Part shown: positions 1-57,976 of the stretch, one piece after another
Position numbering within the stretch: position 1 is the stretch's first letter
Layout of the letters: every line of letters begins with the position of its first letter
Source of the DNA: an uncultured Candidatus Saccharibacteria bacterium
GTDB taxonomy: Bacteria; Patescibacteriota; JAUYIX01; CAYMIK01
NCBI GenBank assembly: GCA_964390745.1
Contig: CAYMIK010000001.1
Span: 48,670-112,669 of the forward strand
DNA length: 64,000 nt
Reading direction: 5' to 3'
Program-made: the position numbers and the translations under genes
The notes under the pieces: model-generated
Told to the model about the DNA's origin: nothing
Databases searched by the model: none
The model's input: the letters and a program-made list of their open reading frames with translations, nothing else

Positions 1-1741
1 TTCCATGTTTAGTGTTGTAGGCTTCCTGAATCTTTCTTCGTCGTTCAACTTCAGAGATGGCGCCTTTCATAGAATCGGTCATGCGATCGGCGTACATAAT
101 AACGTGGCCCTCAACGTGACGAGCAGCACGACCCATTATCTGGATCAATGATGGTTTATCGCGCAAGAAACTTTCTTTGTCGGCATCCAAAATGCCAATT
201 AATGAAACTTCCGGAAGGTCCAAACCTTCACGCAAAAGGTTAATTCCAACGAGAACGTCGTACAAACCTAATCGAAGATCGCGCAAAATTTCGAGTCGTT
301 CAAAAGTTTCAATATCCGAGTGCAAATACTGAACCTTGATGCCCGCTTCTTTCATGTAGGTTGTAAGTTCTTCGGCCATCTTTTTGGTCAAGGTGGTTAC
401 TAAAACTCGCTGACCTTTTTGAACGCGGTTTTGAATTTCATTCATCAAATCGTCAACTTGATTCTCTGTCTTTCGAACTTCAACGGTTGGATCCAATAAA
501 CCAGTGGGGCGAATAATTTGTTCTACGACTTGATCGGATTTTTCCAGTTCGTATTGCGATGGTGTTGCGGAAACATAAATGGTTTGGCCAACACGCTTCA
601 AAAATTCTGTAAATTTCAAAGGACGATTGTCATAGGCTGCGCGCAAACGAAAACCATAATCAACGAGGTTGCGTTTACGAGCTAAGTCGCCCTTAAACAT
701 TCCGCCAATCTGGGGAATCGTTTTGTGCGACTCATCAATAAACGTCAGGAAGTCTTTGGGGAAATAATCTAACAAGACATACGAAGGCTGACCAGGCTTT
801 CTGCCATCCATGTAACGTGAGTAGTTTTCGATGCCGGAAACAAAGCCAACTTCGGAGAGCATTTCAACATCGTGGTTGGTGCGTTGCGCTAATCGTTGTG
901 CTTCAACAAGTTTGTTTTGTTTCTCAAATTCACGGACTTCGTATTCCAGATCGATTTTAATCATTTCAACGGCCTTGTCGATAATGCTTCGCTCCGTGGC
1001 ATAGTGGGAAGCAGGGTAGATGGTGAGTTCGTCGAGTTTTTCTATAATTTCTCCGGTGAGACCATGAACCTTTGAAATGGTTTCGATATTGTCGCCAAAC
1101 ATACTGATCTTGTAGACATTGTCTTCGTAGCTCGGGTGTATCTCAATCATGTCGCCACGGACACGAAACGTTCCACGAATAAAATCAATATCGTTGCGGG
1201 AATAATTTACGCCAACCAAAGACTTGAGCAATTCTTTTTGCTTCACGGGAACAGATTTCTTGATCACGATTTTTACTTTTTCGTATTCGTGGGGGTTTCC
1301 TAAACCGTAGATACAAGAAACGGACGCAACAATAATGACATCGCGTCTTGTAAGAAGGGACATGGTTGCCGCGTGTCGCAGACGATCAATCTCTTCGTTT
1401 CTCTGACTTTCTTTGGATATATATGTGTCAGTGCGGGGAATATACGACTCTGGTTGATAGTAGTCGTAGTAGCTGACAAAATATTGCACAGCATTGTGTG
1501 GAAAGAATTCTTGAAATTCGGATGCCAACTGCGCGGCTAATGTTTTGTTGTGCGCAATAACCAGTGTGGGACGCTGCAAGTTTTGAATGACGCCAGCCAT
1601 CGTAAAAGTTTTACCCGATCCGGTCACGCCTAAAAGCGTCTGGTGCATGAGCCCATCCTTGATTCCTTGGGTGAGCTTTTTGATTGCCTGCTCTTGGTCG
1701 CCCTTGGGTTTGAATTTTGAAACGAGTTGAAATTGTGGCAT
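1..1741 (-). CDS. uvrB: Excinuclease ABC subunit B (UvrB), C-terminal part truncated by window start
   Basis: Reverse-strand translation from ATG at 1739-1741 reads [79 protein letters not shown], the canonical UvrB N-terminus with Walker A. The ORF stays open to position 1; the ORF track omits it because it is edge-truncated. Confidence 0.9.
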
Positions 1742-1884
1742 TGGATTACCTAGTATGCCATGCAAAAAAGTTTTTGTCGAGCTTCGAGTAGGAATTTCTG
1801 CAAAGCCACATCACCCAGCGAAGAATCTTCGTCGGGTTGATGGGCAAGACGTAGCTTGCACTGTGCCTCGCAGGTTGCGAGGAC

Positions 1885-2223
1885 TTACGGACGCAACTCG
1901 CGCGGAGCGTCCAGAACGTAAGACAGCCGCGCGAAGCTCTCGATGATCTCGTCGAGTTTCTTGGAGTCAGAAAGAAGGAGCTGTCGCACCTCTTCCGTGT
2001 CCTCCGAGTGCCCGATCGTGTTCGCGGCATGGCCCAGGAATCGATCCTCCAGCCGTTCCGCCGTGATCCTGGACAACTTCAGGGCATCCTGTAGAACGGA
2101 CACGATGCCGTTAGGGTTGTCCGGCGCTTCAGGTTTGCCGGAGTCTGCCGCAGTTTCAGCCCGTGGCAGACGGTCCGACCCCATGAAGAACCGTTTCTTC
2201 GAACTTGGATATTCGAGGCTCAT
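1885..2223 (-). CDS. Hypothetical 112-aa protein, 4th gene of high-GC operon (island A)
   Basis: ORF MSLEYPSSKKRFFMGSDRLPRAETAADSGKPEAPDNP... with strong RBS AAGGAGGAGG 4 nt upstream (revcomp of 2224-2235). High-GC codon usage unlike flanking genes. No recognisable family. Confidence 0.6.
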   Translation of the reverse strand: MSLEYPSSKKRFFMGSDRLPRAETAADSGKPEAPDNPNGIVSVLQDALKLSRITAERLEDRFLGHAANTIGHSEDTEEVRQLLLSDSKKLDEIIESFARLSYVLDAPRELRP

Positions 2224-2235
2224 GCCTCCTCCTTG

Positions 2236-2562
2236 TCAGCGGTTTCTGATCCGCAGAAAGTTCAGCACCATTTGAATGCGCTCATTCCGTTCTGTTCCCT
2301 CGAACGCAGTTGCTGCGAGCTGTGCCTGGAAGCAGGTGTACTCGTGCGTCCCAACCAGGTAGACGATGAAGTCGGGCGCCGTGCTCCACGAAGACACGAG
2401 GTCGATGTGTTGATCGGGTGCCATGCTGAGGATGTTGACGGTCTCCATGATCTCGAGTCCGATTCTCATTCGCGATGCCGCGAAGCTGGACTCGTCGTTG
2501 TCCAACCTCTCGAGCCGTGCCAGGTGCATCTTTGCATCCCGCCTTTTCGAATTGTTGGACAT
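2236..2562 (-). CDS. Hypothetical ~108-aa protein, 3rd gene of island A; start taken at internal Met MSNNSKRR
   Basis: ORF 2236..2625 on the minus strand. The internal ATG at 2560-2562 is preceded by RBS GGAGAGGAA, whereas the upstream Met (2625) has no RBS. High GC. No recognisable family. Confidence 0.55.
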   Translation of the reverse strand: MSNNSKRRDAKMHLARLERLDNDESSFAASRMRIGLEIMETVNILSMAPDQHIDLVSSWSTAPDFIVYLVGTHEYTCFQAQLAATAFEGTERNERIQMVLNFLRIRNR

Positions 2563-2771
2563 GATTCCTCTCCGTTGGTTCGTGGTGAAGGGTTCTATGA
2601 GCATCCTAACGACAACCTTATGCATTGTAAAGCCTTACGACGAAGCCATTTTCCCAATGGCAAAAGTCGCGTGACGGTGTTCAGTCACTGCAACTCCCTC
2701 TTGACCCGGTCGTGGTCGCAAGGTGCCTCCTACGCGTGCGAATAGCGAACGCTTGGGTATTTCGCGTGCCG

Positions 2772-3137
2772 TTATACGGCACGCACTCGTCCTCTCTGCT
2801 GCCTGAGCCATACCCGGAATGGCCCATAGTACTGCTGGTACAGCAGGTGGCCCGTGCTCCCTGCGAGACGTGGTGCGACGAGGAGAAGGTTATCCTGCGT
2901 CGCGAGATTCTGGAACGAAAGGCGGCTCTTGATGGGCGGGTTGAGAAGCCCAAGTTCCACCGCCACGTACACCGCGAAAAGCGGTGCCCAGTTCTTGGCG
3001 ACGGAGTCCTTTACCCCGCAGATCTCCACGAGATTCCGTGCGATGTCATCGCGGACTCGGGCCAGATGGTCACATCGACCCAGTGCCTCGGGAACGATTG
3101 TTCCCCCTCCAGTTTCGGTGATGTACCGCTGGCTCAT
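2772..3137 (-). CDS. Hypothetical 121-aa protein, 2nd gene of island A
   Basis: ORF MSQRYITETGGGTIVPEALGRCDHLARVRDD... with RBS GGGGGAGGAAG 4 nt upstream. High GC. A hairpin GTGCCGTTATACGGCAC overlaps its stop. No recognisable family. Confidence 0.6.
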   Translation of the reverse strand: MSQRYITETGGGTIVPEALGRCDHLARVRDDIARNLVEICGVKDSVAKNWAPLFAVYVAVELGLLNPPIKSRLSFQNLATQDNLLLVAPRLAGSTGHLLYQQYYGPFRVWLRQQRGRVRAV

Positions 3138-3183
3138 GTCTTCCTCCCCCTGTGAAGGTGTGACTGCTCGGTCTACGAGGGTG

Positions 3184-3531
3184 TTACGACTGCACGGCGA
3201 CTTCCGCCGGGTTCTCTCGCATGTACTTCCTCACGAGCTCCTGACTATCAAAGAAGTCGCTGCTCTCGAGTTTCCAGGCGCACTCCTCGAGCTGGGCGAG
3301 TGAGACTTCGGTATTGGGTGGCAGGTCGTGCCTCCAACGGACGAAGCGATCGACGCTCCGCATCGATGTAAGGCGATCCAGACACGAGTGGGTCTCGAGG
3401 TGGAGCCCAATGCTCGTGCGGGCGGCCTGTCGACGTATTTCGCCCGTCTTGAGCGCCATTCGACCCTTCCACTCCCGGACGAGCTGAACTGCATGCTTCA
3501 AGAAGTTCGGGTTCGTCGTTTCCTGAGTCAC
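3184..3531 (-). CDS. Hypothetical ~115-aa protein, 1st gene of island A (GTG start)
   Basis: ORF (M/V)TQETTNPNFLKHAVQLVREWKG... with RBS GAGGAGG 6 nt upstream of GTG at 3529-3531. High GC. No recognisable family. Confidence 0.55.
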   Translation of the reverse strand: MTQETTNPNFLKHAVQLVREWKGRMALKTGEIRRQAARTSIGLHLETHSCLDRLTSMRSVDRFVRWRHDLPPNTEVSLAQLEECAWKLESSDFFDSQELVRKYMRENPAEVAVQS

Positions 3532-3581
3532 GGTGTCCTCCTCGGCTTGGCCGGTGATTGTGAGGTGGGTCTCGCGGCTTC

Positions 3582-3611
3582 ACTATAGAGGTGACTTTGG
3601 CTGTATGTCAA
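3582..3611 (-). promoter_or_regulatory. Sigma70-like promoter for island A operon (TTGACA-18-TATAGT on minus strand)
   Basis: Revcomp of 3582-3611 reads TTGACAtacagccaaagtcacctcTATAGT, about 50 nt upstream of the first island-A gene. Confidence 0.45.
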
Positions 3612-3651
3612 TGTGCTCGCAAACCCGCACAAAACCTGCTATTATACCCGC

Positions 3652-4239
3652 ATGATTCGACAACTTACCGGAACGATTATTTCTAAAGGAGCGGGCGAAC
3701 TGGTTTTGGACGTCCATGGCGTGGGCTACCAGGTCTTTATTACGGTACGCGATGAATCGGCGCTGCCTTTGGTTGGCGAATCTGCCACATTATATACGCT
3801 TCACTATATCCGCGAAGCCGCACAGGATTTGTACGGATTTTCTTCGTTGGAAGAATTATCAACATTTGAAATGCTGCTTGAAGTAAACGGCGTTGGTCCA
3901 AAGGCTGGCATGTCGATTCTTTCCAAAGCAAGTCCAAGCGAAATTCATCGAGCTATAACGAGCCAAGACACTTCTATTCTCACGAAGATATCTGGCATCG
4001 GGAAAAAGACTGCCGAACGAGTTGTCATGGAACTGAAGAATAAAGTAAATGATTTTGCTATTGCTTCCTTGGAAACGGGTATCGACATTTTGACACCCGG
4101 AACAGAAGCCCTCGATGCCCTTGTTGCTTTGGGCTGCACAAAAGATGAAGCAAAGATGGCACTTTCAAAGATTATGAAACCTGAAATGAAGATTGAAGAT
4201 CAGGTGAAAGAAGCATTGAAGTATTTGGGAACGAAATAA
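3652..4239 (+). CDS. ruvA: Holliday junction DNA helicase RuvA
   Basis: MIRQLTGTIISKGAGELVLDVHGVGYQVFITV... is a typical RuvA N-terminus (MIxxLxG), with HhH and C-terminal domain III. The ATG at 3652 lies about 9 nt after a TATTAT -10 box, so the mRNA may be leaderless. The track ORF begins earlier at 3613. Confidence 0.85.
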   Translation: MIRQLTGTIISKGAGELVLDVHGVGYQVFITVRDESALPLVGESATLYTLHYIREAAQDLYGFSSLEELSTFEMLLEVNGVGPKAGMSILSKASPSEIHRAITSQDTSILTKISGIGKKTAERVVMELKNKVNDFAIASLETGIDILTPGTEALDALVALGCTKDEAKMALSKIMKPEMKIEDQVKEALKYLGTK

Positions 4240-4250
4240 TTCAAAGACTC

Positions 4251-5240
4251 ATGAGTATATCTTTTGAAGTAACAAAAGAATCGCTGAATGAATTCGTAAC
4301 AACCCATCCGCACGGTCACCTTTTGCAATCGTATGAGTGGGGAGAGGCGCAAGAAGCTTTCGGTGAACCGATTTTTCGTGTTGTCGTGAAAGAAAATGAA
4401 ACCATTCTTGCCGCCGCTACGGTTATCGTAAAAACTTTTTACAAAAACTTTCACTACCTCTACTGCCCCAAGGGTCCGCTTTTTGCCGAAGGTGCATCGG
4501 AAGAAATTCGCAAACAACTTTTTGAGGCGATACACCACGAAGCTACAAAACGCGGCTCAATTTTTCTGCGTGTTGCCCCCGAACTTCAAGAAAAGCCTGA
4601 ATGGCTTTCGCATTTCAAGAAATCAAATCAAGAACTTGAGCCCCACGAGACACTCATTCTGGATCTGTCAAAATCAGAAGAACAACTTCTTGCCGAAATG
4701 AAGTCAAAAACACGTTACAATATTAAACTCGCAGAAAAGAAGGGCGTGAAGGTTGTTTCGGGAACGGACCAAAAATATCTTGAGGCATTTTTACAGCTCA
4801 ACCAAGAAACTGCAACGCGAGATAAGTTCACCGTCCATAAAAATTCTTACTACCATGCGCAACTTGAAAAGCTTGGACCTGCAGGATTTCTTAAAATCTA
4901 CGTTGCCTTCGTAAACGAGAAGCCTGTTGCGGCAAACCTCGTTTCGTTTTTTGGTAATCGCGTAACCTATGTACATGGCGCGTCTTCCAATGAAGCACGA
5001 AATCTCATGCCCACCTTTGCGCTCCAGTGGCAGGCAATCAAGGATGCAAAAAATGACAACAAAAGCGAGTACGATTTTTGGGGAATCGATGCATCACAAG
5101 ACCCAAACCATCCGTGGGCCGGTATTACTCGTTTCAAAACAGGATTTGGTGGAACTGTGGTAAAATATATTGGAGCATACGACCACGTATATCGAAGGGG
5201 TCTAGCTTCGTTGTATACATTATATAAACGCATCGCGTAA
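4251..5240 (+). CDS. FemAB/FemX-family peptidoglycan interpeptide-bridge aminoacyltransferase (329 aa)
   Basis: Size and sequence features typical of the FemABX family (HPHGHLLQSYEWGE, YCPKGP, KSKTRYNIKLAEKKGV, FWGI). Sits next to murE. Confidence 0.7.
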   Translation: MSISFEVTKESLNEFVTTHPHGHLLQSYEWGEAQEAFGEPIFRVVVKENETILAAATVIVKTFYKNFHYLYCPKGPLFAEGASEEIRKQLFEAIHHEATKRGSIFLRVAPELQEKPEWLSHFKKSNQELEPHETLILDLSKSEEQLLAEMKSKTRYNIKLAEKKGVKVVSGTDQKYLEAFLQLNQETATRDKFTVHKNSYYHAQLEKLGPAGFLKIYVAFVNEKPVAANLVSFFGNRVTYVHGASSNEARNLMPTFALQWQAIKDAKNDNKSEYDFWGIDASQDPNHPWAGITRFKTGFGGTVVKYIGAYDHVYRRGLASLYTLYKRIA

Positions 5241-5250
5241 GAGTAGAAAA

Positions 5251-5583
5251 ATGGAAAAGAAGCTTTTCATTGTCTCGGGTGTCTTTCTGGTAATAGCCAT
5301 TGTCTTTGGTATTTTTTATTTTATGAATCGAACTCCTGTACAAAAAGAACCCGTAAACTTTGCAGACCCAGCAACCCTCGACTCTGATAACGATGGTCTT
5401 ACTGACGCAGAAGAGCAGCAAGCAAAAACAGACGTACATCAAGCTGACAGTGATGGAGATGGACTGACTGACTACCAAGAAGTGAAAACATTTTTCACGA
5501 ATCCCAACTCACAGGATACGGATCACGACGGATATAGCGACAAGGCTGAGATTGATACGAAGCATAATCCCAACGGAGCATAA
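5251..5583 (+). CDS. Small membrane-anchored protein with three thrombospondin-type-3-like Ca-binding repeats (DxDxDGxxDxxE)
   Basis: N-terminal TM helix (LFIVSGVFLVIAIVFGIFYF), then DSDNDGLTDAEE, DSDGDGLTDYQE, DTDHDGYSDKAE. Confidence 0.6.
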   Translation: MEKKLFIVSGVFLVIAIVFGIFYFMNRTPVQKEPVNFADPATLDSDNDGLTDAEEQQAKTDVHQADSDGDGLTDYQEVKTFFTNPNSQDTDHDGYSDKAEIDTKHNPNGA

Positions 5584-5588
5584 GAGCC

Positions 5589-6920
5589 ATGAAAGATTTT
5601 TTGAAGAAAATTCTTCCTAAATCTGCTATCAAGGTGTATCACAAAGTTTTGGTATTTGCTGCAGCTATGTGGTATGGGTTTCCATCGGATAAAATGATCA
5701 TCATTGGTGTCACGGGAACAAAGGGAAAAACCAGCACAACAAACTTCATTGCTGATATGTTGGAGTCCACGGGTGCAAAGGTTGCAGCCCTTTCTACGGC
5801 AGTCTATCGGCTTCCAGGAAAAAGTTGGGTGAACGCCACAAAGATGACGATGCCAGGCCGAACGCAATTGCAACGATTCTTGCAAAAAGCGCACAGAGCC
5901 GGATGCAAGTATGTTGTGGTAGAAACTTCCAGTGAGGGGATTGCTCAGAATCGAACAACCGCCATAAGTTACGACGTTGCCGTTTTTACAAACATCAGCC
6001 CAGAGCATATCGAGTCTCACGGGAGTTTTGAAAATTACAAAAAAGCAAAGCAAAAACTTTTCCAGGGGCTTATGCGTTCCCGGCGAAAAGCGGGTGTAAA
6101 AAAAGTTTCCGTGGTGAATCTTGACGATGAAGCTGCACAAGATTTTTTGAAGTTTCCTGCTGACGCGCACTACGGATTTTCAATGAGCGGAAAAACACAA
6201 GAAGGCGTTGAGGCGATTGAAGCCAGCAACGTTCAAACCTCACGCGCTGGCCTCACGTTTGATATTTCGGTGAACGGATTGAAAGATTCTGTTTTTGCAC
6301 CAATCTCTGGTGCCTTTCATGTACAAAATTTACTCGCTGCTATAGCAGTGCTGCTTTCACAGAATATTTCGTGGAAAAAAATTCGTGAAGCACTTACGGT
6401 GGTCAAGCCGGTTCCCGGCCGAATGCAATTTGTCGCGTACCAAAATCCATTTACTGTTATTGTTGATTATGCGCACGAACCAAAATCACTGGGAGTTATT
6501 TTACGCGAAGCACGCGACCTTGCTGGTGCTGATCATCAGGTTATCGTTCTCACGGGCGCACAAGGCGGTGGGCGAGATCACGCCAAACGTCCACAGATGG
6601 GCCAGGTTGCCAAAGAAAATGCGGACTTTATCGTTGTGACCAATGAAGATCCTTATGATGAAGACCCACAGAAAATTATTGATGATGTTGCTAGGGGTGT
6701 TCAGGATGCTGGTGGGGTAGAAGGCACAGATTTTGTAAAAGTTGCTGACAGAGCCGAAGCAATTCAAAAAGCTATCGACGTCGCCAAGCCCGGTGACGTG
6801 GTGGTACTAGCGGGCAAGGGCTCGGAAACGGTTATGGCAGTTCGAGAAAACAAAAAAGTTCCCTGGAGCGACTCAGAGGTGGTTCAGCGAATCCTTGATT
6901 CGAAGAAATCCGGGGCGTAA
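5589..6920 (+). CDS. murE: UDP-N-acetylmuramoyl-tripeptide synthetase (MurE-type Mur ligase)
   Basis: P-loop GVTGTKGKTSTT, a Mur ligase middle domain, a C-terminal domain and 443 aa are all typical of MurE. Confidence 0.8.
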   Translation: MKDFLKKILPKSAIKVYHKVLVFAAAMWYGFPSDKMIIIGVTGTKGKTSTTNFIADMLESTGAKVAALSTAVYRLPGKSWVNATKMTMPGRTQLQRFLQKAHRAGCKYVVVETSSEGIAQNRTTAISYDVAVFTNISPEHIESHGSFENYKKAKQKLFQGLMRSRRKAGVKKVSVVNLDDEAAQDFLKFPADAHYGFSMSGKTQEGVEAIEASNVQTSRAGLTFDISVNGLKDSVFAPISGAFHVQNLLAAIAVLLSQNISWKKIREALTVVKPVPGRMQFVAYQNPFTVIVDYAHEPKSLGVILREARDLAGADHQVIVLTGAQGGGRDHAKRPQMGQVAKENADFIVVTNEDPYDEDPQKIIDDVARGVQDAGGVEGTDFVKVADRAEAIQKAIDVAKPGDVVVLAGKGSETVMAVRENKKVPWSDSEVVQRILDSKKSGA

Positions 6921-6933
6921 CGAATTTGCAAGC

Positions 6934-7380
6934 CTAGAAAAGCCACGTGAACAAGAAGTAGTAGGCTGTGCCAAAAACGACTCCAGCAATAACGCCGGCG
7001 GCGACTTCAGCACGAGTGTGTCCAACGCGGATATGCAGTTGTTCAAATTTCGTCTGTTCTTCCTTGGGCAAAAAGGTGACAAGGTGATGAATATCTTGTA
7101 AGCTTTTATTGACGTAGTTTCGAAGTCCGAGTGCATCGCGCACAATGACAAGGCCAAAGACAATAGAAAGCGCGAAAACGCCAGAATTTATACCTTCAGC
7201 AAGGCCAATGGCAACAGCAAGGCTCGTAACCAGGGCCGTATGGCTCGATGGCATGCCGCTGTAGCTCCACATACTATGAACGTCTTGGTTGCGTTTCGAG
7301 AACTTCTTGACGATGAACTTGATTACTTGAGCAGTGAATGCGGTAAAACCAGCAGCGAGAACAATTATTGGCACAGCCAT
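6934..7380 (-). CDS. Divergent PAP2 / YuiD-like membrane protein (148 aa)
   Basis: Multi-TM protein with an SGMPSSHTALVTSLAVAIG motif characteristic of the divergent PAP2 (DUF212) family. Confidence 0.6.
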   Translation of the reverse strand: MAVPIIVLAAGFTAFTAQVIKFIVKKFSKRNQDVHSMWSYSGMPSSHTALVTSLAVAIGLAEGINSGVFALSIVFGLVIVRDALGLRNYVNKSLQDIHHLVTFLPKEEQTKFEQLHIRVGHTRAEVAAGVIAGVVFGTAYYFLFTWLF

Positions 7381-7421
7381 TTTTAGATCAAATTATTGCG
7401 AGATGAAGTATAACAAAAATT

Positions 7422-8012
7422 ATGAAAAGCGAAAATATCCTTTTTGTTGATACGATAACGAAAAAAGCCGGTATGACCATTTCACGAGGCGGGAAGCTTT
7501 TTACTGCCCATTTTGGAGAGAGGCACCAATATTCTCGTGATCTTATTAGGGTCTTTGATACTGTTTTGAAGAAAGCGCGTCTGAAACCTGCCAATCTGGC
7601 CGGTGTTGTGGTCTTGGTTGGACCTGGCTCATATACCTCGATTCGTATTGGGGTTTCTTTTGCAAACGCACTGGGTTTTGCGCAGAACGTGCCTGTTGCG
7701 GCCAAAACTCTCTTTGAAGCGCTGCCTCATGGCTCCAAGGAGACAGTTCTTTTGGAAGCAGGCCGAGGGAATATCTTTTACCACAAAGCTTCCAAGGAAG
7801 GTGTATGGACAAATGCTGATTTGGCAAAAAAGACTGGCGAGTTTGTTGGTTTGGAACTTTCCGAAGAAACCCTGGCTCAATTTTCGAAGAAGCCAAAAGA
7901 AGCGACCCTTGATATTGCGGCCGTTTTGTCTGATGTGAAATGGCCCAAAAAATTTGCACCCGTTGCCGCGCACTACATCTTGCCACCGAATATTATGGTG
8001 AAGAAGAAATAA
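7422..8012 (+). CDS. tsaB: tRNA threonylcarbamoyladenosine biosynthesis protein TsaB (YeaZ-like)
   Basis: GPGSYTSIRIGVSFANALGFA matches the YeaZ/TsaB signature. 196 aa. Confidence 0.7.
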   Translation: MKSENILFVDTITKKAGMTISRGGKLFTAHFGERHQYSRDLIRVFDTVLKKARLKPANLAGVVVLVGPGSYTSIRIGVSFANALGFAQNVPVAAKTLFEALPHGSKETVLLEAGRGNIFYHKASKEGVWTNADLAKKTGEFVGLELSEETLAQFSKKPKEATLDIAAVLSDVKWPKKFAPVAAHYILPPNIMVKKK

Positions 8013-8100
8013 TCAAGAAAATAAGAACCAAGCCGGGCCTTGCGACGTCGCGGATGCGTCGTCGAAAGGTCACCGGCTGGCGCCAAGCTCTTGGGCTTGG

Positions 8101-8523
8101 CTATTCGCACAGGTTGAGCTGCTTTCGGCACGTGCTGCCGATCAGGTGTTCGGGGTCTAGGCTCGGGAGCTTACCCGAAACCAGGTAGAGAGGGTTGGGG
8201 TCCTCATACCCCCTGAGAAGGAAGACCTTCTCCTCTTGCATGACCCCTCCGGGATCGTGCGGGGGCTCGACCCTGCGGGTCGCGACCGCCACCACCTTCA
8301 GGTTCTCTGGTGTCTTGGGGTCGTTTTTCAGGTCCCACCAGTCGGTCACGACGGCGGTCTTCTTGGTCTCGAGGATCGCGATCTGCCGCTCGCGCTCCTC
8401 GAGCTTCCCGGCCGCGATGACCAACGTGAGCCCCGTGCCCGCAATGGCCAGGATGCCCACGAGGAAGATCATGCGACCGTAGAACTTGATCGTATCCTCG
8501 CGGTAATCTTTCTGAATCGCCAT
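8101..8523 (-). CDS. Hypothetical 140-aa single-pass membrane protein encoded in a high-GC island (island B)
   Basis: MAIQKDYREDTIKFYGRMIFLVGILAIAGTGLTLVIAAG... has a cytoplasmic N-terminus, one TM helix and about 100 aa outside. RBS GGGAGAG upstream. G+C far above the flanks. Hairpins plus a T-run lie downstream around 8028-8100. Confidence 0.55.
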   Translation of the reverse strand: MAIQKDYREDTIKFYGRMIFLVGILAIAGTGLTLVIAAGKLEERERQIAILETKKTAVVTDWWDLKNDPKTPENLKVVAVATRRVEPPHDPGGVMQEEKVFLLRGYEDPNPLYLVSGKLPSLDPEHLIGSTCRKQLNLCE

Positions 8524-9029
8524 TCGACTCTCCCTGCTCTTGTGCCAAAAGGCCGAAGTCGAGGTGATCCCGACATTCGTAAGAGACTCATCAAGGTATC
8601 ACAAATACCATCTTTTGTCAACCCTCTATTTAACGCATATTTAAGCCATTTTTTAGGGATAATTAATCTTTGGGCCGCACAATGAGTAGTAGCACCAAAG
8701 TCGCAATTATTATGCGAGGAGTCGGGGATTGGGAGGTGAAATAAGGACCTCGAACCCACCCATTAAGCTTTGGCTTAACCAAGCCTAATCCCCAGGGGTG
8801 TGGAAAAAATGGCCAAAAAAGCCCTTCGTGGAGGCCGAAAAATGAGGCTTAAATAAGCCCAAAAACCCCCTTTTTCTTGACATGAGCCGCCACGCATGAT
8901 AACCTTCGACCTAACAATTGCATACAAGGTCAAGGCCTAAAGGTTCATAGTTTATTACCTAATTAACCAACGAACCACGAACCAGAAGGTCTTTCGTACA
9001 ACCCCCGAAAAAGGGATTGTGCACTGTTC

Positions 9030-10376: not shown

Positions 10377-10805
10377 ATGCCAAAATCAAAAAAGAAAAAA
10401 CAACTCGAAACTGAGAACACCGAAGTGCTTACGCAGGATTCTACGGATACGAAAGAAACGAATCAAAAAGATGACGACCTGCAACTCTCAGATCAAGACA
10501 TTTCGCAGATTATGGATTTGCGCGCCAAAAAACTTGGGGTGCTTTTAGCTACCTCTACTATGCCCGACGAAGTAAAAGAGGCATGGGTGGCGCTTCTCCC
10601 TGAACTCTCATTGAGCCAGTTGGATCGACTTACTAACATCTTGGAAGCCGAGTATTTGAATAACGGAACAGCACCTATCGATGAATTCTATTCCACCAAG
10701 TGGAAAGAGGCGAAGGAAGAGTATTTTGAAGCGATTGAAAAGATCGAAGATGATGCGAGAGAGAAAGTAGCGAAGTTTCAGAATATTCAAAAAGAGTTGC
10801 ACTGA
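10377..10805 (+). CDS. Small acidic hypothetical protein (142 aa), translationally coupled to giant protein
   Basis: RBS AAAGAGG. Product is acidic and K/E/D-rich. Its stop TGA overlaps the ATG of the next gene (TGATG at 10803-10807). Confidence 0.6.
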   Translation: MPKSKKKKQLETENTEVLTQDSTDTKETNQKDDDLQLSDQDISQIMDLRAKKLGVLLATSTMPDEVKEAWVALLPELSLSQLDRLTNILEAEYLNNGTAPIDEFYSTKWKEAKEEYFEAIEKIEDDAREKVAKFQNIQKELH

Positions 10806-13800
10806 TGGGAATGTTTGAAGGCCCAAAACCACCGAAACCCAAGAAACCAGCAAAGAGTTTGTTTGGAAAAGTTTTAGGTTCGAAAAAACGTAAACAACCG
10901 ACAAGGGGTCCTGAGCTTCCTGATTCTGATCGTTTGGGTCCCGTAGAAATTTTTGATGCACAATTCGAAGCACCGGATTCGCATGAGCCGAGTTTTGAAC
11001 TTCAGAGCCGAGGAACCGAGGCTATCGTAGCAGAGTTTCGAGAGATATACGAAGAGCCGGCCGTAACTGATGTCGCAACCGAGGCCCCTGCTGCTCCAAA
11101 AGAAACACGCGAACCCGAACGAAGTGAAGAGGATAAGCGCATTGATGACGCAGTAAACTTCCTTCGTGGGAAAAAGGTGAAGATTTACAATCCCGAAAGC
11201 GGTGTCGAAGAAGAGTATGACGTTCATAGCCTTCGAGTGCGCAATGGCGTTGGCATGGTTGATGGCTCCTCCTTTGATAGCAAAAACGCATTTAGTGAGA
11301 TTCCGCTCGATTTGGTATTGGCGCAACACGGGAAGCAACCGTGGGGGCTTAAGACAATGAACGATGCTGCCAAAGAGGGACTCAAAAGATTTACGGCTGA
11401 CAAGGCGTTGTTCACTCCAGAAAACATTGCAGACATTGAAAGCTTTATGAGCGGCGAGAATACCACTGGTAGTTTGGCGCGCGAGCACATGATGCGGGCT
11501 ATTTATGATTACCTTTATCATTGTTCTGGAGAGAATGGGAGAGAGGAGCCAGAGAGGTATTTTAGTACCTTTGATGCTTCTGTTACAGAAACAGCCACAA
11601 CTCCTGACGGATCATTTGGCCATGAGGCGTTACAACCTGAACGTACTGAGGAGCAAAAAAGAATTGAGGAGACGGTTGCCTTTTTCCGAGACAAGAAGGT
11701 TAAGATTCCAAGACCAGAAAATGGCAAGGAAGATGATTTTGAAGTTGATAGCATCAAGGTGCGCAATGGTATTGGTATGGTTGTTGCTTCCAAAGAAGGG
11801 CCAAATGGCGAAAGAGTGCGTGGCGAATTTCCGCTCGATCTTGCCTTGTTGCAACACGGCGAATCTCCGTGGCGCATTGAGGCAATGAACGATGCTGCGC
11901 GTAGTGCAGTCTTGAGATTCATGGATGCAGCACCGCCAGAAATGCAAAAGGAAATTGATCGCTACTTCTTTGGTCACGAAAACCCTGCACCCGAACGTAC
12001 AGACGCGAGGCTCATTGGATCTGTTTATTTCTACGCGTATGGTGAAAATGGAGCGAATGGGAGCACGGACGTTGAAAGATCATTCGATGTTCATAGCACG
12101 GCTGCTCAAGAGGTGGGCACGGCTGCTCCTAGCCCTACAGGCGCAGAAGTTCCACCGGTCGTAGTGACAGCAACCCCAGAAAGCTCAGGAACAGAGACAC
12201 CACGAACCGAACCTTCTACGGAAACGGCCTCACCTGAATTACATACTCCACTCACTGAAGAAGAGAAAATGGTGCGATCACGAGAGGCGCTTCGGGACGC
12301 GATTTCTGAACTTCAGGGAAAACAAATTTGGGCCTACAATGTTGCCACAGGAGAATTTGAACAAAACTTTATTTTAGAGAACGGCACCGTAAACAATGGT
12401 GTTGCCATGGCGCGTGTGCGAAAGTTGGGTTCTACCGAACCCATGTCGCAACTTTCTTTGCAAAGCATGGATGAAATTTTGAGTATGAATGGTCTTCAGC
12501 CTTGGGGCATGCGATATATGTCACCGGAAGCACAGGCCGTCATAGCAGAGGCAACATGGAGAGATCACGAACACGCAGAACTCATCACTGATGTATTTTC
12601 GGGAAGAAGCGACTTTGGCCAACTCACACCAGAGCAACGCCGTGTTATTGAGCAGCTTCGAATTCAGGCGTACAGCGCTAAGCCCGGTTTTCATAATGAG
12701 AATACCGGCGCTGCTTTGCCCCAGCAACAAACAGAATCGCAACCACAACAAGAGTCGCAGCCACAACCAAAGAGCGCAGGGTCTCTTGGTAAGAGAATGA
12801 TCGAGGCATTCAAGAATCTTCCCAAGAATGTCGCTGAACGTGCAAAAAGTATTCCTCAAAATGTTATAAAGTTCTTAAAGGAAAATCCCGAGAGCATCGG
12901 CTACTCCGTTGCTGGGTTTGTTGCGTTTCGTGCTATGCACTTTGTAGGTATACAGGCCATACGCGATCTCTATCAGTATGGAAAACAAAAAGCGGTTATC
13001 GATGGGTATGCTCGTGTTTTTGAAAAAACCCGTCCGGGCATGGCACATACACTTGAGGATATGGGCCGATACTTAAATCAGCATGGAGAACAAAAGCCAA
13101 AGGGCATAAAGAAGGATGCTAACGTAACTTCGGGCCGAAACCAGCTTATTGCGAAACGGAATGAATTCGATACCAGCCCGAAGGGCGCTGAATATCGGGC
13201 ACTTCGTGAAGCAAAAAGAAACGGTGAGCTATCTCGAAAGGACGCACGGCGCCTGGAAGAACTTCACGAGGAACGTTTTCCTATGCGTGAAAGCCTGGTA
13301 TCGTTCCGTGAACAACTGGGCGTTATTAAAGGTGGCGACAAGGCTGATTCACCAGAACGTCAGCTTTTGCGAAACTATTTCAATGAAGCCACGACTCTGG
13401 AGAAGGGCCAGCTTGGTATTTTGAAGTTGCGCTCAGAAGACATCGTATCGAAGTACATGGAAACAAAGATGAGTGGTGTGCAAGCGCTACGAAGTGCCAC
13501 GACGGCAGCCATAATGACGTATGTGTACTCGCACCCACCAGTAGCAGTTTGGGCAGGAAAAGCCAGAGTTATGACGATGGGATTCTTTGATGTTTGGCAG
13601 AAACGAAACGACGAAGAACGATTCAATAAAATCCAAAACGATCTTCGATCGCAAGAGAAAGGCTACAAAAAACTACCAGAGCAATTGAATATTCAATCGG
13701 CTGTAAGCCAAGCTGCGACAAGAATATATCATGAGCTTCGCGGAAAACCAGACGCGTCAGCAGCGGAACAACAAGAGACAAAACGGGCACGTATCAAAGC

Positions 13801-16540
13801 CTTGGCAGTTGTTACAAACTACGCACTGGCTGGCGGCGCATTGCGACCATTCATACGAATGGGCTCAGAGAGCGCAAGTTGGATTTCAGAAAAGGCTTCG
13901 AATGGTATTGATCTTGTTTCTGAAAAGATTCCTGGACACCTCGATCTTCACCCTGGTCACTGGGCAGCGAAAGTAGAAGATGCTCTGCGCCTTCATGAGC
14001 ACAAAACGGCCATTGATGCTGGTACGACCGGGGATGTTTCCAAATCTGTAGAGTCAGCGAAAAAAGCTCTTGATGCGGCTGCGGCTGTAGGCGCACAAAA
14101 ACCTGATGCAGAAATTTTGAAACATCTCGCGGAACAAGCACCGCAAGACACAAATGTACGACTCGAAGCGCCCCTAGTAGGTCTCGACGCAAAGAGCGGT
14201 GTAACCCCAGAAGACATTTCGCAAACACTTGAAAAACTCAAGGTTTCTCAAGATGATCTTTCTCGTCTAGTAAAGATTGAACTAGCCGGGAACCCATCGT
14301 TGCATAATGCCCATGAGGCACTTCAAGTTTTGCGTGAAGCGAAGCCTGCCGAGATTGAACAGTTCAAAGAAATCATGGGAAATCGTGACATCGCTCATGA
14401 TGTCGTAATTGAAACACAGGCGCGATTCAGAGATCAGGCTGCAGCGCTCGAAAAAGTATTAGGCAAAGATTCTCCAGCTGTTCAGGCAATTATGGCACAA
14501 AACAATGATCGACTCTCTGACGTTCTCACGGCACAGGCTGGTGGAGGCAAACACACCGAAGCAGATGTTGAGCGAGCCTTCCGCGTTGCCTTCGGAGAAA
14601 ATCCAACGCTTCATATCACTGATACTCACGTCCTTGGAACGATGATTCAGAACAGTCCAGAAGTGCAAACATTCTATTCCGCGCATGAAAACGTTCCGAT
14701 TAATGCACGAAATATTGTCGCTGTTGTAGAAGGAAAGGGGAATCAAGTCTTGCAAGCTATGAACAAACATGTAGATGCGGAATTGTTTGATAATCTTGCA
14801 GCCAACGCTCGCCCTAATGCCCTCATGAATGTGCCTGTTGCTTCTGGTGCCGCTGAGGATGCCATTCGTCAGGCAGCAGAGATTAAAACTCAGATGGCAG
14901 AAATCACGGGTGGAACTGTTGCGGACGTTGATAACTTGATGCATCGCGTTGGCGCACAAACAAACGAAGGACTCTTTGCAGTGATTCGTCGCGTGCAGCT
15001 TGATCGTCATTTGGAAGATCCGCAGCAAGCTCTTCGAATGTTGGCGCACATGAACGATCAACAACTTGGCCCCTATGCGGAAGTTGGAAGAGAGCAAGGC
15101 ACGCTCCGTCCACTCTCTGCAGCTGAACTGAACACCGTTGGTCAGCCGGTGCCACAGAGCGTTGCTGAAACGGTTGGCTCCGAGGCAGCACCAGAATCAA
15201 CACCAGAACCTGATGGCGAACCAGGCTCAGCAGGAGTTACGTACCCAGACCAGCCAGGAAGATTGGGCTCCTATTCTCAGAGTGAAGAAAATTTCCTTCG
15301 CAACTCCGGTGCCTTGAAACCAGAAGATGGCCCGGCACCATTTGATCAAACACAACGCCAAATGGATTATCTGCGCAATGCACCACGCCCTGATCAGCAG
15401 AATTATTTGCGAAATGCGCCACAAGGTTCATCCCGCCCACTCGTTCGTGAACCAATCATGAAACAAAGCGAGGGTGCACGGATGACCCACCCAGCCTGGG
15501 AGCCTGGCCAGCATGGAATCCGAAATCCTGAACGCGTCCCTTCGGCTCTTCAGGTTCATGAAGTTCCGGGTCAACCATCGCATATCGACGTTGCGCCTCC
15601 ACCTGGCCTGCACGTTGAACAAGTTCCTGATAGCGAAATTTGGATCAGCAAGGGAGAACTTGCGCCTATTACCGATGAAAAACTGAATGAGCTGCGTGAA
15701 AACTATTTGAAATTGCCACTCGAAGATCGCCAGAAGGCTGAAAATTGGGCGAATGTTGCTGCGCGATACCATCTCCGTCCTGGTGTTTTACGCGACATAA
15801 CAAACCCGATTGATGGACGCCTTCGTGTAACGATGGATACAAATGGTGATATAGAAATTCAGGATAGATTTGGCAGCCATCCGTACCGAGCTCCGAGAAA
15901 CGTAGCAGCTGACCCGTATTTCCAACAAGCTTTTGAAAAACCAGTCGAAGAAACCTATCGATCGGCCTATATCTCAACAAGGGGCAAACTGACTGAAGGT
16001 GAAACCACGACAACGGATTACGGTGGCGACAAGCAAACCGTTCATCTTGATGAAGACGGCACCTACACGAGAATAAGTCCTCGAGGCACAGAGATCTGGC
16101 CTGATCCGGACAATGAAAACCCAATGCAGCCAAGTACGATTCCATTTTCACAAACGGCACCGCAGGAACAACCGCAAAATCAAATGGGGTCACAAGACCA
16201 AATGCCACCTCGCGCACGATCTGGTGAACGCCAGCCAATCTTCAAGGAAGGTTCGCGAGGTTCATACGGAAACCAGGGTTATGGCGGTGGCGGAAATGGC
16301 GGTGAACGCCAACCCATCATGAAAAACGGCTCACAAGGTTATGGGGGTTATAGTGGTGAACGCCAACCCATTATCAAGAACGGCTCGCAGGGCTATGGCG
16401 GAAATAGTGGTGGACGTGGCTACAATAGTGGAGAGCGCGAGCCTGTTCCTCCTGTCTGGCAGCAGCATCCACGAGGCATTGTTCCTCGCGGGGGATCTGG
16501 GAGACGAGGGGATGCCCCAAGTATCAACATAAATCTGTAA
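10805..16540 (+). CDS. Giant hypothetical protein (1911 aa) with three tandem ~150-aa internal repeats and a G/Q/Y-rich C-terminal repeat tail
   Basis: Single uninterrupted ORF. Three divergent copies of one domain, approximately nt 11100-11570, 11600-12065 and 12245-12665 (shared pattern KRI(D/E)..V.F.R.KKVKI..PE.G.E...V.S..VRNG.GMV, then ...PLDL.L.QHG..PW....MNDAA). C-terminus has GERQPI(M/F/I)K(N/E)GS.GYGG repeats at about 16210-16440. Confidence 0.75.
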   Translation: MGMFEGPKPPKPKKPAKSLFGKVLGSKKRKQPTRGPELPDSDRLGPVEIFDAQFEAPDSHEPSFELQSRGTEAIVAEFREIYEEPAVTDVATEAPAAPKETREPERSEEDKRIDDAVNFLRGKKVKIYNPESGVEEEYDVHSLRVRNGVGMVDGSSFDSKNAFSEIPLDLVLAQHGKQPWGLKTMNDAAKEGLKRFTADKALFTPENIADIESFMSGENTTGSLAREHMMRAIYDYLYHCSGENGREEPERYFSTFDASVTETATTPDGSFGHEALQPERTEEQKRIEETVAFFRDKKVKIPRPENGKEDDFEVDSIKVRNGIGMVVASKEGPNGERVRGEFPLDLALLQHGESPWRIEAMNDAARSAVLRFMDAAPPEMQKEIDRYFFGHENPAPERTDARLIGSVYFYAYGENGANGSTDVERSFDVHSTAAQEVGTAAPSPTGAEVPPVVVTATPESSGTETPRTEPSTETASPELHTPLTEEEKMVRSREALRDAISELQGKQIWAYNVATGEFEQNFILENGTVNNGVAMARVRKLGSTEPMSQLSLQSMDEILSMNGLQPWGMRYMSPEAQAVIAEATWRDHEHAELITDVFSGRSDFGQLTPEQRRVIEQLRIQAYSAKPGFHNENTGAALPQQQTESQPQQESQPQPKSAGSLGKRMIEAFKNLPKNVAERAKSIPQNVIKFLKENPESIGYSVAGFVAFRAMHFVGIQAIRDLYQYGKQKAVIDGYARVFEKTRPGMAHTLEDMGRYLNQHGEQKPKGIKKDANVTSGRNQLIAKRNEFDTSPKGAEYRALREAKRNGELSRKDARRLEELHEERFPMRESLVSFREQLGVIKGGDKADSPERQLLRNYFNEATTLEKGQLGILKLRSEDIVSKYMETKMSGVQALRSATTAAIMTYVYSHPPVAVWAGKARVMTMGFFDVWQKRNDEERFNKIQNDLRSQEKGYKKLPEQLNIQSAVSQAATRIYHELRGKPDASAAEQQETKRARIKALAVVTNYALAGGALRPFIRMGSESASWISEKASNGIDLVSEKIPGHLDLHPGHWAAKVEDALRLHEHKTAIDAGTTGDVSKSVESAKKALDAAAAVGAQKPDAEILKHLAEQAPQDTNVRLEAPLVGLDAKSGVTPEDISQTLEKLKVSQDDLSRLVKIELAGNPSLHNAHEALQVLREAKPAEIEQFKEIMGNRDIAHDVVIETQARFRDQAAALEKVLGKDSPAVQAIMAQNNDRLSDVLTAQAGGGKHTEADVERAFRVAFGENPTLHITDTHVLGTMIQNSPEVQTFYSAHENVPINARNIVAVVEGKGNQVLQAMNKHVDAELFDNLAANARPNALMNVPVASGAAEDAIRQAAEIKTQMAEITGGTVADVDNLMHRVGAQTNEGLFAVIRRVQLDRHLEDPQQALRMLAHMNDQQLGPYAEVGREQGTLRPLSAAELNTVGQPVPQSVAETVGSEAAPESTPEPDGEPGSAGVTYPDQPGRLGSYSQSEENFLRNSGALKPEDGPAPFDQTQRQMDYLRNAPRPDQQNYLRNAPQGSSRPLVREPIMKQSEGARMTHPAWEPGQHGIRNPERVPSALQVHEVPGQPSHIDVAPPPGLHVEQVPDSEIWISKGELAPITDEKLNELRENYLKLPLEDRQKAENWANVAARYHLRPGVLRDITNPIDGRLRVTMDTNGDIEIQDRFGSHPYRAPRNVAADPYFQQAFEKPVEETYRSAYISTRGKLTEGETTTTDYGGDKQTVHLDEDGTYTRISPRGTEIWPDPDNENPMQPSTIPFSQTAPQEQPQNQMGSQDQMPPRARSGERQPIFKEGSRGSYGNQGYGGGGNGGERQPIMKNGSQGYGGYSGERQPIIKNGSQGYGGNSGGRGYNSGEREPVPPVWQQHPRGIVPRGGSGRRGDAPSININL

Positions 16541-27200: not shown

Positions 27201-27920
27201 ACGGACATCTATATTATTGGTGGTACGAGCGCCATACAGGACTCGGTAGTTGCACAAATTCAAGCTGTGAACTCCAAGCTCGACATAAAACGACTCGCGG
27301 GTTCTGATCGAATTGATACGGCCATCAAAGTAGCTCAGGAAATGGACTCTGTTCGTGGGTTAAATCCAAGCAACGTAGCCGTTGCTTCTGGCTATAACTT
27401 CAATGATGCCGCAGCTATGGCTGCTGTTGGCTCCGACTCAACGGTAAACTCTCGATACATTCCGGTGCTATTGAATGGCACGGGCTCACTCGATTCTCGC
27501 GTTTCAAGCTATATTAACGGCAAAAAATCTTCGCTTTCGAAGGTCTGGGCAATAGGTTCGACAAGTGCCATATCAAACTCGGCACAGACTTCCTTGAACT
27601 CGATCGTCGGCTCTTCAAAAGTCACACGACTTTCCGGATCTGATAAGTATGGAAATACAACCGCTATAGCATCACAGTTTTACCCATCTGCTGCAGCGGT
27701 TACGATCACGGTTGGTGGAAATTTCCCAGACGTATTGGCTGGTGGTCCATACGCAGCTTCGAAGCATGCGCCAGTGTTGTATGTTTCTTCTTCCTCCGTT
27801 CCCTCTGCAAATACAACCTTCCTTGACGCCAAAGCAAGTACCCTTAACTATGTATATGTTTTGGGTGGAACAACTGCCATACCAAACACGGTAAAACAGA
27901 CCGTTCAACAGCACCTCTAG
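24243..27920 (+). CDS. Large secreted/cell-surface protein (1225 aa): signal peptide, right-handed beta-helix region, PKD-like repeats, three C-terminal CWB2-type cell-wall-binding repeats
   Basis: N-terminal signal/TM. CSTSPSSITLLEAVACANSHPGPDTISIPA motif typical of beta-helix adhesin-like proteins, with G/T/S/N-rich beta-helix repeats. Repeated ANAGxDQ...TLxC...DP(D/E)xDTxTYxWT PKD-like modules. C-terminal AGADRYNTA.../LAGSDRIDTA... repeats (CWB2-like). Confidence 0.75.
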   Translation: MNTHLNKLVRVTLTALLVVFSVPAGFFLSMNTAFASTYTVASNGSSANDSDCSTSPSSITLLEAVACANSHPGPDTISIPANGAMGGAITLGGGISVSSGEDLTIIGAGSGSTTITSGGITIVGAGFSLSGVTLAISGTPQAGIAETDPYTGNFSLNDVVMTGTPSIGVYLGADEGFTITGNVSVTNSNIAGDRAGVAIGLGGGGSPTTKLHITGTVDVSDSTFTIAPTDGNGFNAGVAMFSADAGGAVSIDNNVTVQEGTAEGSGFVAMDMADLGTSFGSTVDIVGNSITTGGTDLLGAGVADLIRSVGLTTISGNTVSGGIGENANFAGGVLMADGGCIFGGTCTGQEDLVISNNDIDVSFEGAPSMPVIMAQAETATVNGNTVDLNGEDANGIVCSSFTSTPDCTVNDNVISHVGGQSGIVLTPSFDAQIVNGDIYNNVVWGGTNDAGFGILAASVPMGGPQPAGATINANIFNNSVDGNGHTVGIAAGDMTGDTVLDAVVFNNAVANYNTASSAGIMQIGTSEDVSFAHDHNMVGPSSTNSFVSTPDGMSFSDLSLGTGDVVDDPEFTNAATGDLSIDVTSPAVDTGTSVSNTVSAPSTDFNGDPRPARDAFDIGAFEYQNQSPVTAAGVDQNKYKGASLTDSVTLHCDATDPEGDTPITYAWTRTSGPSSVSFTGASTADASFTPGAVGTYVIRCTATDSLSAPGYDEMNVVVTANTAPSANAGVDQAVHTGDSVTLHCASTDTEEDTITYAWTNVSGPTTPSLATASTADSGFTAAAVGTYVVRCTTGDSYNTSATNDTVSIVVTDANTSPTANAGPDQYTTIGDQVNLTCAASTDPDVGDSLTYHWTQTSGSTVSLSSTSSATPHFTPTTLGNRTFQCQVTDAHAATNTDSVVIHATAQRIAGADRYNTAIALSQSMYSSSHTVSAMVIASGENYPDALASGPLAALIHGPVLLVQKTWAPGEVRTEIARLWNNSDDSATDIYIIGGTSAIQDSVVAQIQAVNSKLDIKRLAGSDRIDTAIKVAQEMDSVRGLNPSNVAVASGYNFNDAAAMAAVGSDSTVNSRYIPVLLNGTGSLDSRVSSYINGKKSSLSKVWAIGSTSAISNSAQTSLNSIVGSSKVTRLSGSDKYGNTTAIASQFYPSAAAVTITVGGNFPDVLAGGPYAASKHAPVLYVSSSSVPSANTTFLDAKASTLNYVYVLGGTTAIPNTVKQTVQQHL

Positions 27921-39158: not shown

Positions 39159-39161
39159 ATA

Positions 39162-39941: not shown

Positions 39942-40024
39942 ACAACCTCAAATTATTACCCTTGTATTCTAGCGCGAATCGAGAAAAATGTCTTGAGGTT
40001 GGCGATTCTCTGAGCGTAGTTATT

Positions 40025-40064: not shown

Positions 40065-40137
40065 GAAGAAGGGATGCGCGGAATTTCGCGCGATAGTACT
40101 GATTGTCATCTGGCCTGCCCGCCAGAGAGCCCAGCTC

Positions 40138-57963: not shown

Positions 57964-57976
57964 TGGAGGTTCTGTT

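Follow-up and report, generated by a model that had tools for sequence, protein, structure and literature searches.

A stretch of 64,000 nucleotides (64 kb, here called the window) from the metagenome-derived contig CAYMIK010000001.1 carries, between the divergent repair genes uvrB and ruvA, a G+C-rich segment that we call island A (positions 1800-3611, minus strand). Island A encodes four small proteins, A1 to A4. We propose that island A is probably a horizontally acquired, self-contained expression cassette in a cellular chromosome, located in the promoter region between the divergent genes uvrB and ruvA; the host is probably a deep-branching member of the Patescibacteria, or candidate phyla radiation (CPR). 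The best-supported view of its kind is that island A is one case of a class of inserts that recurs in this chromosome and is similar in build to the morons of phage genomes.

The composition of island A is foreign to its host

Island A has a G+C content of 58.0%, against about 43 to 46% in its surroundings. Windowed G+C passes from 0.41-0.46 to 0.57-0.61 across approximately 1800-3610 and then returns to 0.42-0.47; the edges of the island are defined by this change in composition and not by a repeat or a recombination site. Both flanking genes lie outside it. On the left, uvrB (2-1741, minus strand) is annotated in the window and runs off its end, and has a weak promoter-like site of its own at 1780-1752; on the right, ruvA (3652-4239, plus strand) begins 40 nucleotides (nt) from P1, the predicted promoter of the island. 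The genes A1 to A4 are co-directional with uvrB, and the island lies upstream of uvrB, in the promoter region between this gene and the divergent ruvA. The surroundings are those of a cellular chromosome, as the window encodes UvrB, RuvA, RpoB, RpoC, FtsK, iPGM, RecA, RodZ, S6, YchF, RNase J, Ku, and LigD.

Codon, dinucleotide, and amino acid usage deviate along with base composition. The G+C content of third codon positions (GC3) is 0.435 ± 0.029 in the host (n = 24 genes) and 0.69 to 0.75 in A1 to A4, which is approximately 9 to 11 host standard deviations above the mean. High GC3 is not the signature of high expression in this genome, since GC3 in the host genes for RpoB and RpoC is only 0.42 to 0.43. 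A codon model of the host gives negative scores in every frame of the island open reading frames (ORFs), and the dinucleotide distance from the host, delta*, is 137 for island A; host windows of equal length give 72 ± 31, which places the island in the top 4.8%. Likewise, the ratio of arginine to arginine plus lysine, R/(R+K), is 0.74 in the products of A1 to A4 and 0.39 in host proteins. Island A is therefore foreign to its host in base, codon, dinucleotide, and amino acid composition, and its foreign origin is well supported.

An earlier reading of this DNA from its letters and a list of ORFs, which we refer to as the original prediction, had described about 1.8 kb of G+C-rich sequence between two repair genes and had argued for a foreign origin. 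The first description agrees with the 58% G+C and the uvrB/ruvA flanks reported here, and the second with GC3, the codon model, delta*, and R/(R+K). The comparison of GC3 and codon values with those of flanking genes, which had been proposed as a check, gave clearly distinct values. An actinobacterial donor, on the other hand, is pure conjecture, as there is no homolog from which a donor could be named.

Island A contains four protein-coding genes on the minus strand

A1 to A4 are genuine protein-coding genes of the minus strand, as opposed to RNA genes or antisense ORFs. A1 (3184-3531) encodes 115 amino acids from a GTG start, with the Shine-Dalgarno (SD) sequence GAGGAGG 5 nt upstream (3537-3543); its product has an isoelectric point (pI) of 7.9 and no transmembrane segment. 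A2 (2772-3137; 121 amino acids, pI 9.8) has an ATG start preceded by the SD GGGGGAGG (3143-3150), and A4 (1885-2223; 112 amino acids, pI 5.2) has an ATG start preceded by GGAGGAGG (2225-2232). For A3 (2236-2562, pI 6.3), two starts are conceivable: ATG 2529, chosen in the source annotation, gives 97 amino acids, and ATG 2562, which follows the better SD, GGAGAGG (2567-2573), gives 108. Spacers of 46, 209, and 12 nt separate A1 from A2, A2 from A3, and A3 from A4, respectively. The four ORFs, with their coordinates and sizes, as well as the GTG start and the 209- and 12-nt gaps, are as originally predicted. By eye, and not by computation, the first 40 or so residues of A4 resemble low-complexity sequence and its C-terminal part looks helical. 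There is no paralogy among A1 to A4.

The predicted pairing energies with the anti-SD sequence are -11.8, -11.3, -6.6, and -11.4 kcal/mol for A1, A2, A3, and A4, respectively, compared with values from +1.7 to -9.1 kcal/mol for host starts in the window. The SDs of A1, A2, and A4 are stronger than that of any host gene in the window, while that of A3 is ordinary; the earlier statement that every gene has a strong GGAGG-type ribosome-binding site thus stands for three of the genes and fails for A3. All nine copies of GGAGG within 1800-3611 are on the minus strand.

Codon structure points the same way. In A1, A3, and A4, GC3 (0.71 to 0.75) exceeds the G+C content of first positions (GC1, 0.52 to 0.63), which in turn exceeds that of second positions (GC2, 0.40 to 0.43). 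In A2, GC1 and GC3 are about equal, and periodicity alone cannot separate this gene from its antisense ORF. A codon model was trained, leaving one out, on the other G+C-rich ORFs of the window. With this model, the annotated frame scored best for all eight ORFs in the G+C-rich inserts (islets) of the window, A1 to A4 included. A2 received +0.195 bits per codon, against +0.023 for its antisense frame.

It could be argued that island A is instead a structured G+C-rich RNA, or that plus-strand ORFs are the true genes. Where a genome is AT-richer, its G+C-rich stretches often turn out to be RNA; nearly all frames of the island contain ORFs, as G+C-rich DNA would lead one to expect; and the ORF antisense to A2 (2712-3155) has equal periodicity, with GC1 close to GC3. 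Yet Rfam gave no match in an E-value scan of positions 1-8000, even at E ≤ 1, nor at the gathering threshold across the 64-kb window, and the RNA of the 209-nt gap is not unusually structured or stable (folding z = 0.07). SD motifs occur on the minus strand only, at the right distance from the starts, and the plus-strand ORFs have none; periodicity and the leave-one-out codon model together favor the minus-strand frames for all four genes. We consider a noncoding or plus-strand origin of the signal exceedingly improbable, and the choice between strands, raised as a check in the original prediction, falls to the minus strand by both the codon model and the location of the SDs. A fifth candidate, a mini-ORF at 2635-2721 (28 codons, GGAGG-CACC-TTG), was rejected as a gene, with a GC3 of 0.41 below a GC1 of 0.66.

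Predicted promoters and hairpins suggest two transcription units

At the right end of the island, the promoter-like sequence P1 (TTGACA-18-TATAGT; 3582-3611, minus strand) matches the sigma-70 consensus in silico at 11 of 12 positions, sits in AT-richer junction DNA, and reads into A1. It was present exactly as first described. A weaker promoter-like sequence, P2 (TTTACA-17-TAGGAT; 2603-2631, minus strand), with 9 of 12 matches, lies in the 209-nt gap upstream of A3. A G+C-rich, 10-bp hairpin without a T-tract extends over the stop codon of A2 (2763-2785, minus strand; -17.2 kcal/mol); its z score is -2.19, with 6 of 200 shuffled sequences folding as well, and it is possibly the end of a first transcription unit. 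With P2 inside the 209-nt gap and this hairpin at its border, a division into two units, A1-A2 and A3-A4, is plausible if unproven, in keeping with the layout of two gene pairs around a gap that had been proposed earlier.

A search for terminator-like sites on the minus strand of island A was negative. A stem-loop, also without a T-tract, directly follows the stop codon of A4 (1863-1884, minus strand; -12.6 kcal/mol, z = -0.97). Since this stem-loop is not significant and has no T-tract, read-through from island A into uvrB is possible.

At least six G+C-rich islets, island A among them, occur in the window

The original prediction singled out island A as the best candidate in the window for an accessory system. 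Island A is, however, not unique: the window contains at least six G+C-rich inserts, counting island A, which make up approximately 10% of its length and all lie between core genes. The other five, islets B to F, have 56 to 60% G+C, and their ORFs are orphans too, with no paralogy to A1 to A4.

Islets A, C, and F share one build, in which a promoter is followed by one or more SD-led, G+C-rich orphan genes. Sigma-70 sites with at least 11 of 12 matches number four in the 64 kb, against 1.03 expected (P = 0.03), and three of these four best promoters are found at the 5' edges of islets A, C, and F, pointing inward (chance about 1e-6, calculated post hoc). Islet C has the promoter TTGACA-17-TATACT (40542-40514, minus strand; 11 of 12), followed by GGAGGAAACG-ATG, and at its 3' end a 10-bp terminator with a T-tail (40065-40040, minus strand). 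In islet F, the promoter is a perfect TTGACA-17-TATAAT (56109-56137, plus strand; 12 of 12).

As for the individual islets, islet B (approximately 8013-8600) carries an ORF at 8101-8523 (minus strand) with a GC3 of 0.85. Islet C (39950-40605), between the genes for Ku and RodZ, carries an ORF at 40138-40497 (minus strand, GC3 0.76), which probably starts at ATG 40485, behind the SD GGAGGAAACG, and not at TTG 40497. In islet D (41710-42390), between the RodZ and RecA genes, coding periodicity is absent from all ORFs. The islet does not match Rfam either, and folding of each strand gives a z of only about -1.6; islet D may be a noncoding RNA or a decayed cassette. Islet E (approximately 47100-47950), between the S6 and YchF genes, carries an ORF at 47305-47862 (minus strand, GC3 0.72). 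Next to it, a 294-amino-acid ORF (46214-47098, minus strand) shows a ribosomal protein S6 domain only at residues 120 to 209; the N-terminal extension of rpsF into islet E is probably an artifact of stop-poor DNA, with the true start located further downstream. The ORF of islet F (islet, 56150-58050; ORF, 56200-57963, plus strand, GC3 0.73) encodes 587 amino acids, and its product, judged by eye, is probably a membrane protein.

No integrase or transposase is present among the annotated genes of the window, and the window has no tRNA gene anywhere that could have served as a target. Flanking direct repeats, terminal inverted repeats, or a boundary sequence shared by the islets were not found beyond the short sequence TTGCAAAAA. 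This 9-mer has four exact copies in the 64 kb, three of them exactly at junctions between islet and host DNA (the left edges of islets C and D and the right edge of islet F; positions 40025, 41711, and 58047), where it lies beside the 3' hairpin and T-tract of the islet if these are identifiable. A degenerate copy occurs at 1760, 40 nt outside island A, and at two sites the palindrome TTTTGCAAAA includes TTGCAAAAA. The 9-mer may represent a target site, belong to a terminator, or simply be ordinary intergenic sequence of the host.

A distant relative has a different G+C-rich ORF in the same slot

In genome and metagenome collections, the closest RuvA proteins are 45 to 47% identical and include those of several CPR metagenome-assembled genomes (MAGs). 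One MAG of Candidatus Doudnabacteria (JAGQLO010000004.1; locus L045) encodes a UvrB that is 64% identical and has the same divergent uvrB/ruvA layout. Its uvrB/ruvA spacer of about 590 nt (7408-8000) holds a different G+C-rich orphan ORF of 149 amino acids (7486-7935, minus strand), with 0.57 to 0.63 G+C against 0.50 and a GC3 of 0.71. Further G+C-rich orphan ORFs occur in other Patescibacteria loci (L006, 13546-14877; L129, 1366-1920). Genomic islands and horizontal gene transfer have been reported to be common in the Patescibacteria (PMC12455944).

These observations bear on whether island A could be a chimera, that is, DNA of a higher-GC organism introduced into the contig by assembly, binning, or gap filling. 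The sequence comes from a single metagenome-derived contig without close relatives, and the switch in composition is abrupt, as a chimera would also predict. Yet host sequence continues on either side, and the insert keeps exactly to gene boundaries, beginning with a promoter, continuing with four complete ORFs, and ending in a spacer, with neither uvrB nor ruvA cut. Moreover, the window has six such places in 64 kb, which would require twelve precise false joins, and the distant relative also has a G+C-rich ORF in its uvrB/ruvA slot. We regard a chimeric origin as very improbable.

The products of A1 to A4 have no detectable relatives

Searches of Pfam, NCBIfam, PHROGs, and PADLOC gave no match to A1 to A4 at E ≤ 1 beyond noise, and a sequence search of the PDB gave none. 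Scans of viral contigs with all four proteins, tblastn searches against phages and plasmids, and blastn searches against plasmids returned nothing significant. A1, A2, A4, and the 97-amino-acid form of A3 are singleton clusters, all from one 118-kb contig. An exhaustive phmmer search with A2 against 1.84 billion proteins recovered A2 itself and two sub-threshold matches, a YadA-type adhesin repeat and an FSIP2-like repeat protein, both of which we rejected as repeat artifacts. Word-seeded searches with concatenated pairs of A1 to A4 had zero matches, and these are weak negatives because the queries' own entries were missed as well; a later word-seeded search did recover a 582-amino-acid self match. 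As far as these searches reach, the four products are without detectable relatives, and the original prediction was right that none belongs to a recognizable family.

AlphaFold2 models computed without an alignment are of limited use. That of A3 has six helices (predicted local distance difference test [pLDDT] score, 61; predicted template modeling score, 0.46), and that of A2, with a mean pLDDT of 49, is unusable. The fold search of structure models that had been suggested as a check was fruitless: a Foldseek search with the A3 model against the PDB and BFVD gave nothing with E < 1. We propose that A1 to A4 are small, soluble, and probably mostly helical cytoplasmic proteins. That each tight gene pair forms a two-protein complex with an accessory, nonessential role, either modulating a process of the host or of a competitor or acting by partner neutralization, and that the products are not enzymes, is a tentative suggestion that we offer with low confidence.

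The original prediction also offered a functional idea, namely, that A1-A2 and A3-A4 are two modules like type II toxin-antitoxin (TA) systems or form a small antiphage cassette. Type II TA systems, including HEPN/MNT systems, resemble island A in that each unit consists of two small neighboring genes, separated by a short spacer and carried on foreign DNA; in island A, the genes of the two pairs encode 108 to 121 amino acids, the spacers within the pairs measure 46 and 12 nt, and each pair may have a promoter to itself. There are also noise-level Foldseek matches of the A3 model to HEPN toxins and a tblastn match, at E = 0.9, of A1 to a phage nucleotidyltransferase. However, the HEPN matches have E values above 3 and TM scores below 0.4 on a model with a pLDDT of 61, and A1 has no G[SG]...DxD nucleotidyltransferase motif, while matches to Rx4-6H are poorly placed.

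No toxin fold or family (RelE/ParE, MazF, PIN, HicA, HEPN, Doc, GNAT, and others) and no antitoxin or defense family was found in Pfam, NCBIfam, or PADLOC at E ≤ 1, the defense models of PADLOC giving zero matches to A1 to A4 at this threshold, and Pfam and NCBIfam revealed no DNA-binding antitoxin domain (ribbon-helix-helix, helix-turn-helix, AbrB, or Phd). The pI pairs, 7.9/9.8 and 6.3/5.2, lack the usual charge asymmetry of an acidic antitoxin and a basic toxin, and the neighbors are core housekeeping genes and not a defense island. Island A thus has neither a TA domain, nor a well-placed catalytic motif, nor the expected charges. No test favors a TA or an antiphage function, which we judge to be decidedly unlikely.

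WXG100/Esx proteins were considered as well. These are helical hairpins of about 100 residues with a central W-x-G (PF06013) that occur in pairs. The original prediction had denied any WXG motif; in fact, A1 contains the tripeptide WKG at residues 21 to 23, but the motif is not central and is absent from A2 to A4, and Pfam gave no match. Nothing else about A1 is WXG100 like, and we rejected the WXG100 reading.

Comparison with known mobile and accessory systems

Phage morons are independent promoter-gene-terminator units between conserved prophage genes, from which they differ in G+C content (Cumby, Davidson and Maxwell 2012, PMC3594210). Island A is like a moron in several respects. Its G+C content is 0.58, against about 0.44 around it, and its GC3 is 0.69 to 0.75, against 0.435; it has a promoter of its own, predicted from an 11-of-12 consensus match at its 5' edge and directed inward; it lies between two conserved genes without disrupting them; and its cargo is small proteins of unknown function. 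In the sister islet C, a promoter is accompanied by a terminator. In contrast to a moron, island A is in a cellular chromosome between core genes, has no PHROG matches, comprises four genes instead of one or two, and shows no clear 3' terminator. With regard to absence in relatives, another moron trait, only the Doudnabacteria locus shares the uvrB/ruvA layout, and it holds a different G+C-rich ORF. By this comparison, island A resembles a moron in build but is not one, since the phage context is missing.

Genomic islands and islets of the Patescibacteria (PMC12455944) and of bacteria in general share with island A an atypical composition, orphan accessory genes, and an intergenic site. Island A is far smaller than classical genomic islands and has no tRNA or transfer-messenger RNA target, no integrase, and no direct repeats. 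It also differs in being G+C-richer than its host and in its conspicuous build of consensus promoter and SDs; orphan and foreign genes are usually AT-richer than the host.

Integron cassettes and clusters of attC sites lacking integron integrases (CALINs) are likewise compact, with mostly orphan ORFs of foreign composition on a single strand. No intI gene is present among the annotated genes of the window, and no imperfect palindrome of the attC kind was seen by eye, no dedicated attC model having been run; the stems that occur are short and perfect and, by eye, lack the R''/L''-L'/R' architecture and the GTTRRRY core. Unlike cassettes in an array, the islets occur one by one around the chromosome and have promoters of their own. 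Overall, the TA, defense, integron, and WXG100 readings each fail in at least one of the defining features that we tested.

How island A may have been acquired

If island A is a horizontally acquired cassette, its donor would be an unsampled cell or mobile element of about 60% G+C. The foreign DNA may have been captured at breaks by illegitimate or end-joining recombination, with Ku, ATP-dependent ligase, and LigD provided by the host. This route is plausible because the host encodes Ku and LigD, and it would leave a scarless insert of the kind represented by island A. An insertion in the promoter region would break no operon and may for this reason have been tolerated. Once in place, the island would rely on one or more promoters of its own for transcription, with A1-A2 and A3-A4 as units and possible read-through into uvrB.

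Several points weigh against this reading. There is no donor, homolog, or empty-site comparison, and insertion of island A is deduced from composition alone; the end-joining route is conjecture. The promoters, SDs, and hairpins are consensus matches in silico, the stem-loop after A4 is no better than shuffled sequence, and the islet of the Doudnabacteria relative has no consensus promoter or terminator. Because the validated deep homology search covers A2 only, A1, A3, and A4 may yet have relatives; in addition, the clusters of the entire host lineage are singletons, so the orphan state partly reflects poor sampling. Finally, the structure models of A2 and A3 are of low confidence, which makes "helical" and "pairwise complex" weak statements.

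An alternative scenario is that island A is recently captured DNA without a function in its host, whose ORFs are intact because the insertion is young. This scenario would fit the lack of relatives anywhere, the many such inserts that fill about 10% of the window, the end-joining genes of the host, and the absence of mobility genes from the inserts. However, the island has four complete ORFs that cover about 76% of it, each with an SD at the right distance, and a promoter at the right end, and its junctions contain no truncated gene fragments. Three separate islets share this orderly build, unlike random fragments, and streamlined genomes of this kind usually lose useless DNA. Functionless DNA is, in our view, quite unlikely.

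A bolder form of the cassette model would have a dedicated, undescribed route placing G+C-rich, self-expressing orphan cassettes ("chromosomal morons"), each made up of a consensus promoter, a strong SD, one or more ORFs, and a hairpin, between core genes, maybe marked by a junction motif of the TTTTGCAAAA type, with A1 to A4 as a two-by-two accessory system of an episymbiotic lifestyle. We hold this extension to be unlikely.

Other features of the host chromosome

The end-joining genes form a set at 37069-39941 (minus strand) that encodes a LigD primase-polymerase, an ATP-dependent ligase, and Ku and adjoins islet C. To our knowledge, a complete Ku/ligase/LigD end-joining set is uncommon in the Patescibacteria. 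The window also encodes a 1,911-amino-acid protein without any Pfam match (10805-16540, plus strand) and two large tandem paralogs (24243-27920 and 28022-31186, plus strand) that share a 300-nt segment at 74% identity. The product of 24243-27920, the only one of the two paralogs that was scanned, has PKD-like and CWB2 cell-wall-binding domains. The 1,911-amino-acid protein and the tandem paralogs are probably surface proteins.

Implications

Island A is a clean unit of one promoter region and four small genes. If cassettes such as this are real and expressed, then many intergenic sites of this streamlined and probably episymbiotic genome receive foreign genes that come ready for expression. 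Such uptake would proceed without recognizable mobile-element machinery and would be relevant to the question of how CPR bacteria acquire new functions while their genomes are reduced; it would also point to a wholly unsampled pool of proteins from a donor of higher G+C content. Even if island A were merely neutral captured DNA, it would still be of use as a marker of end-joining-mediated gene acquisition.

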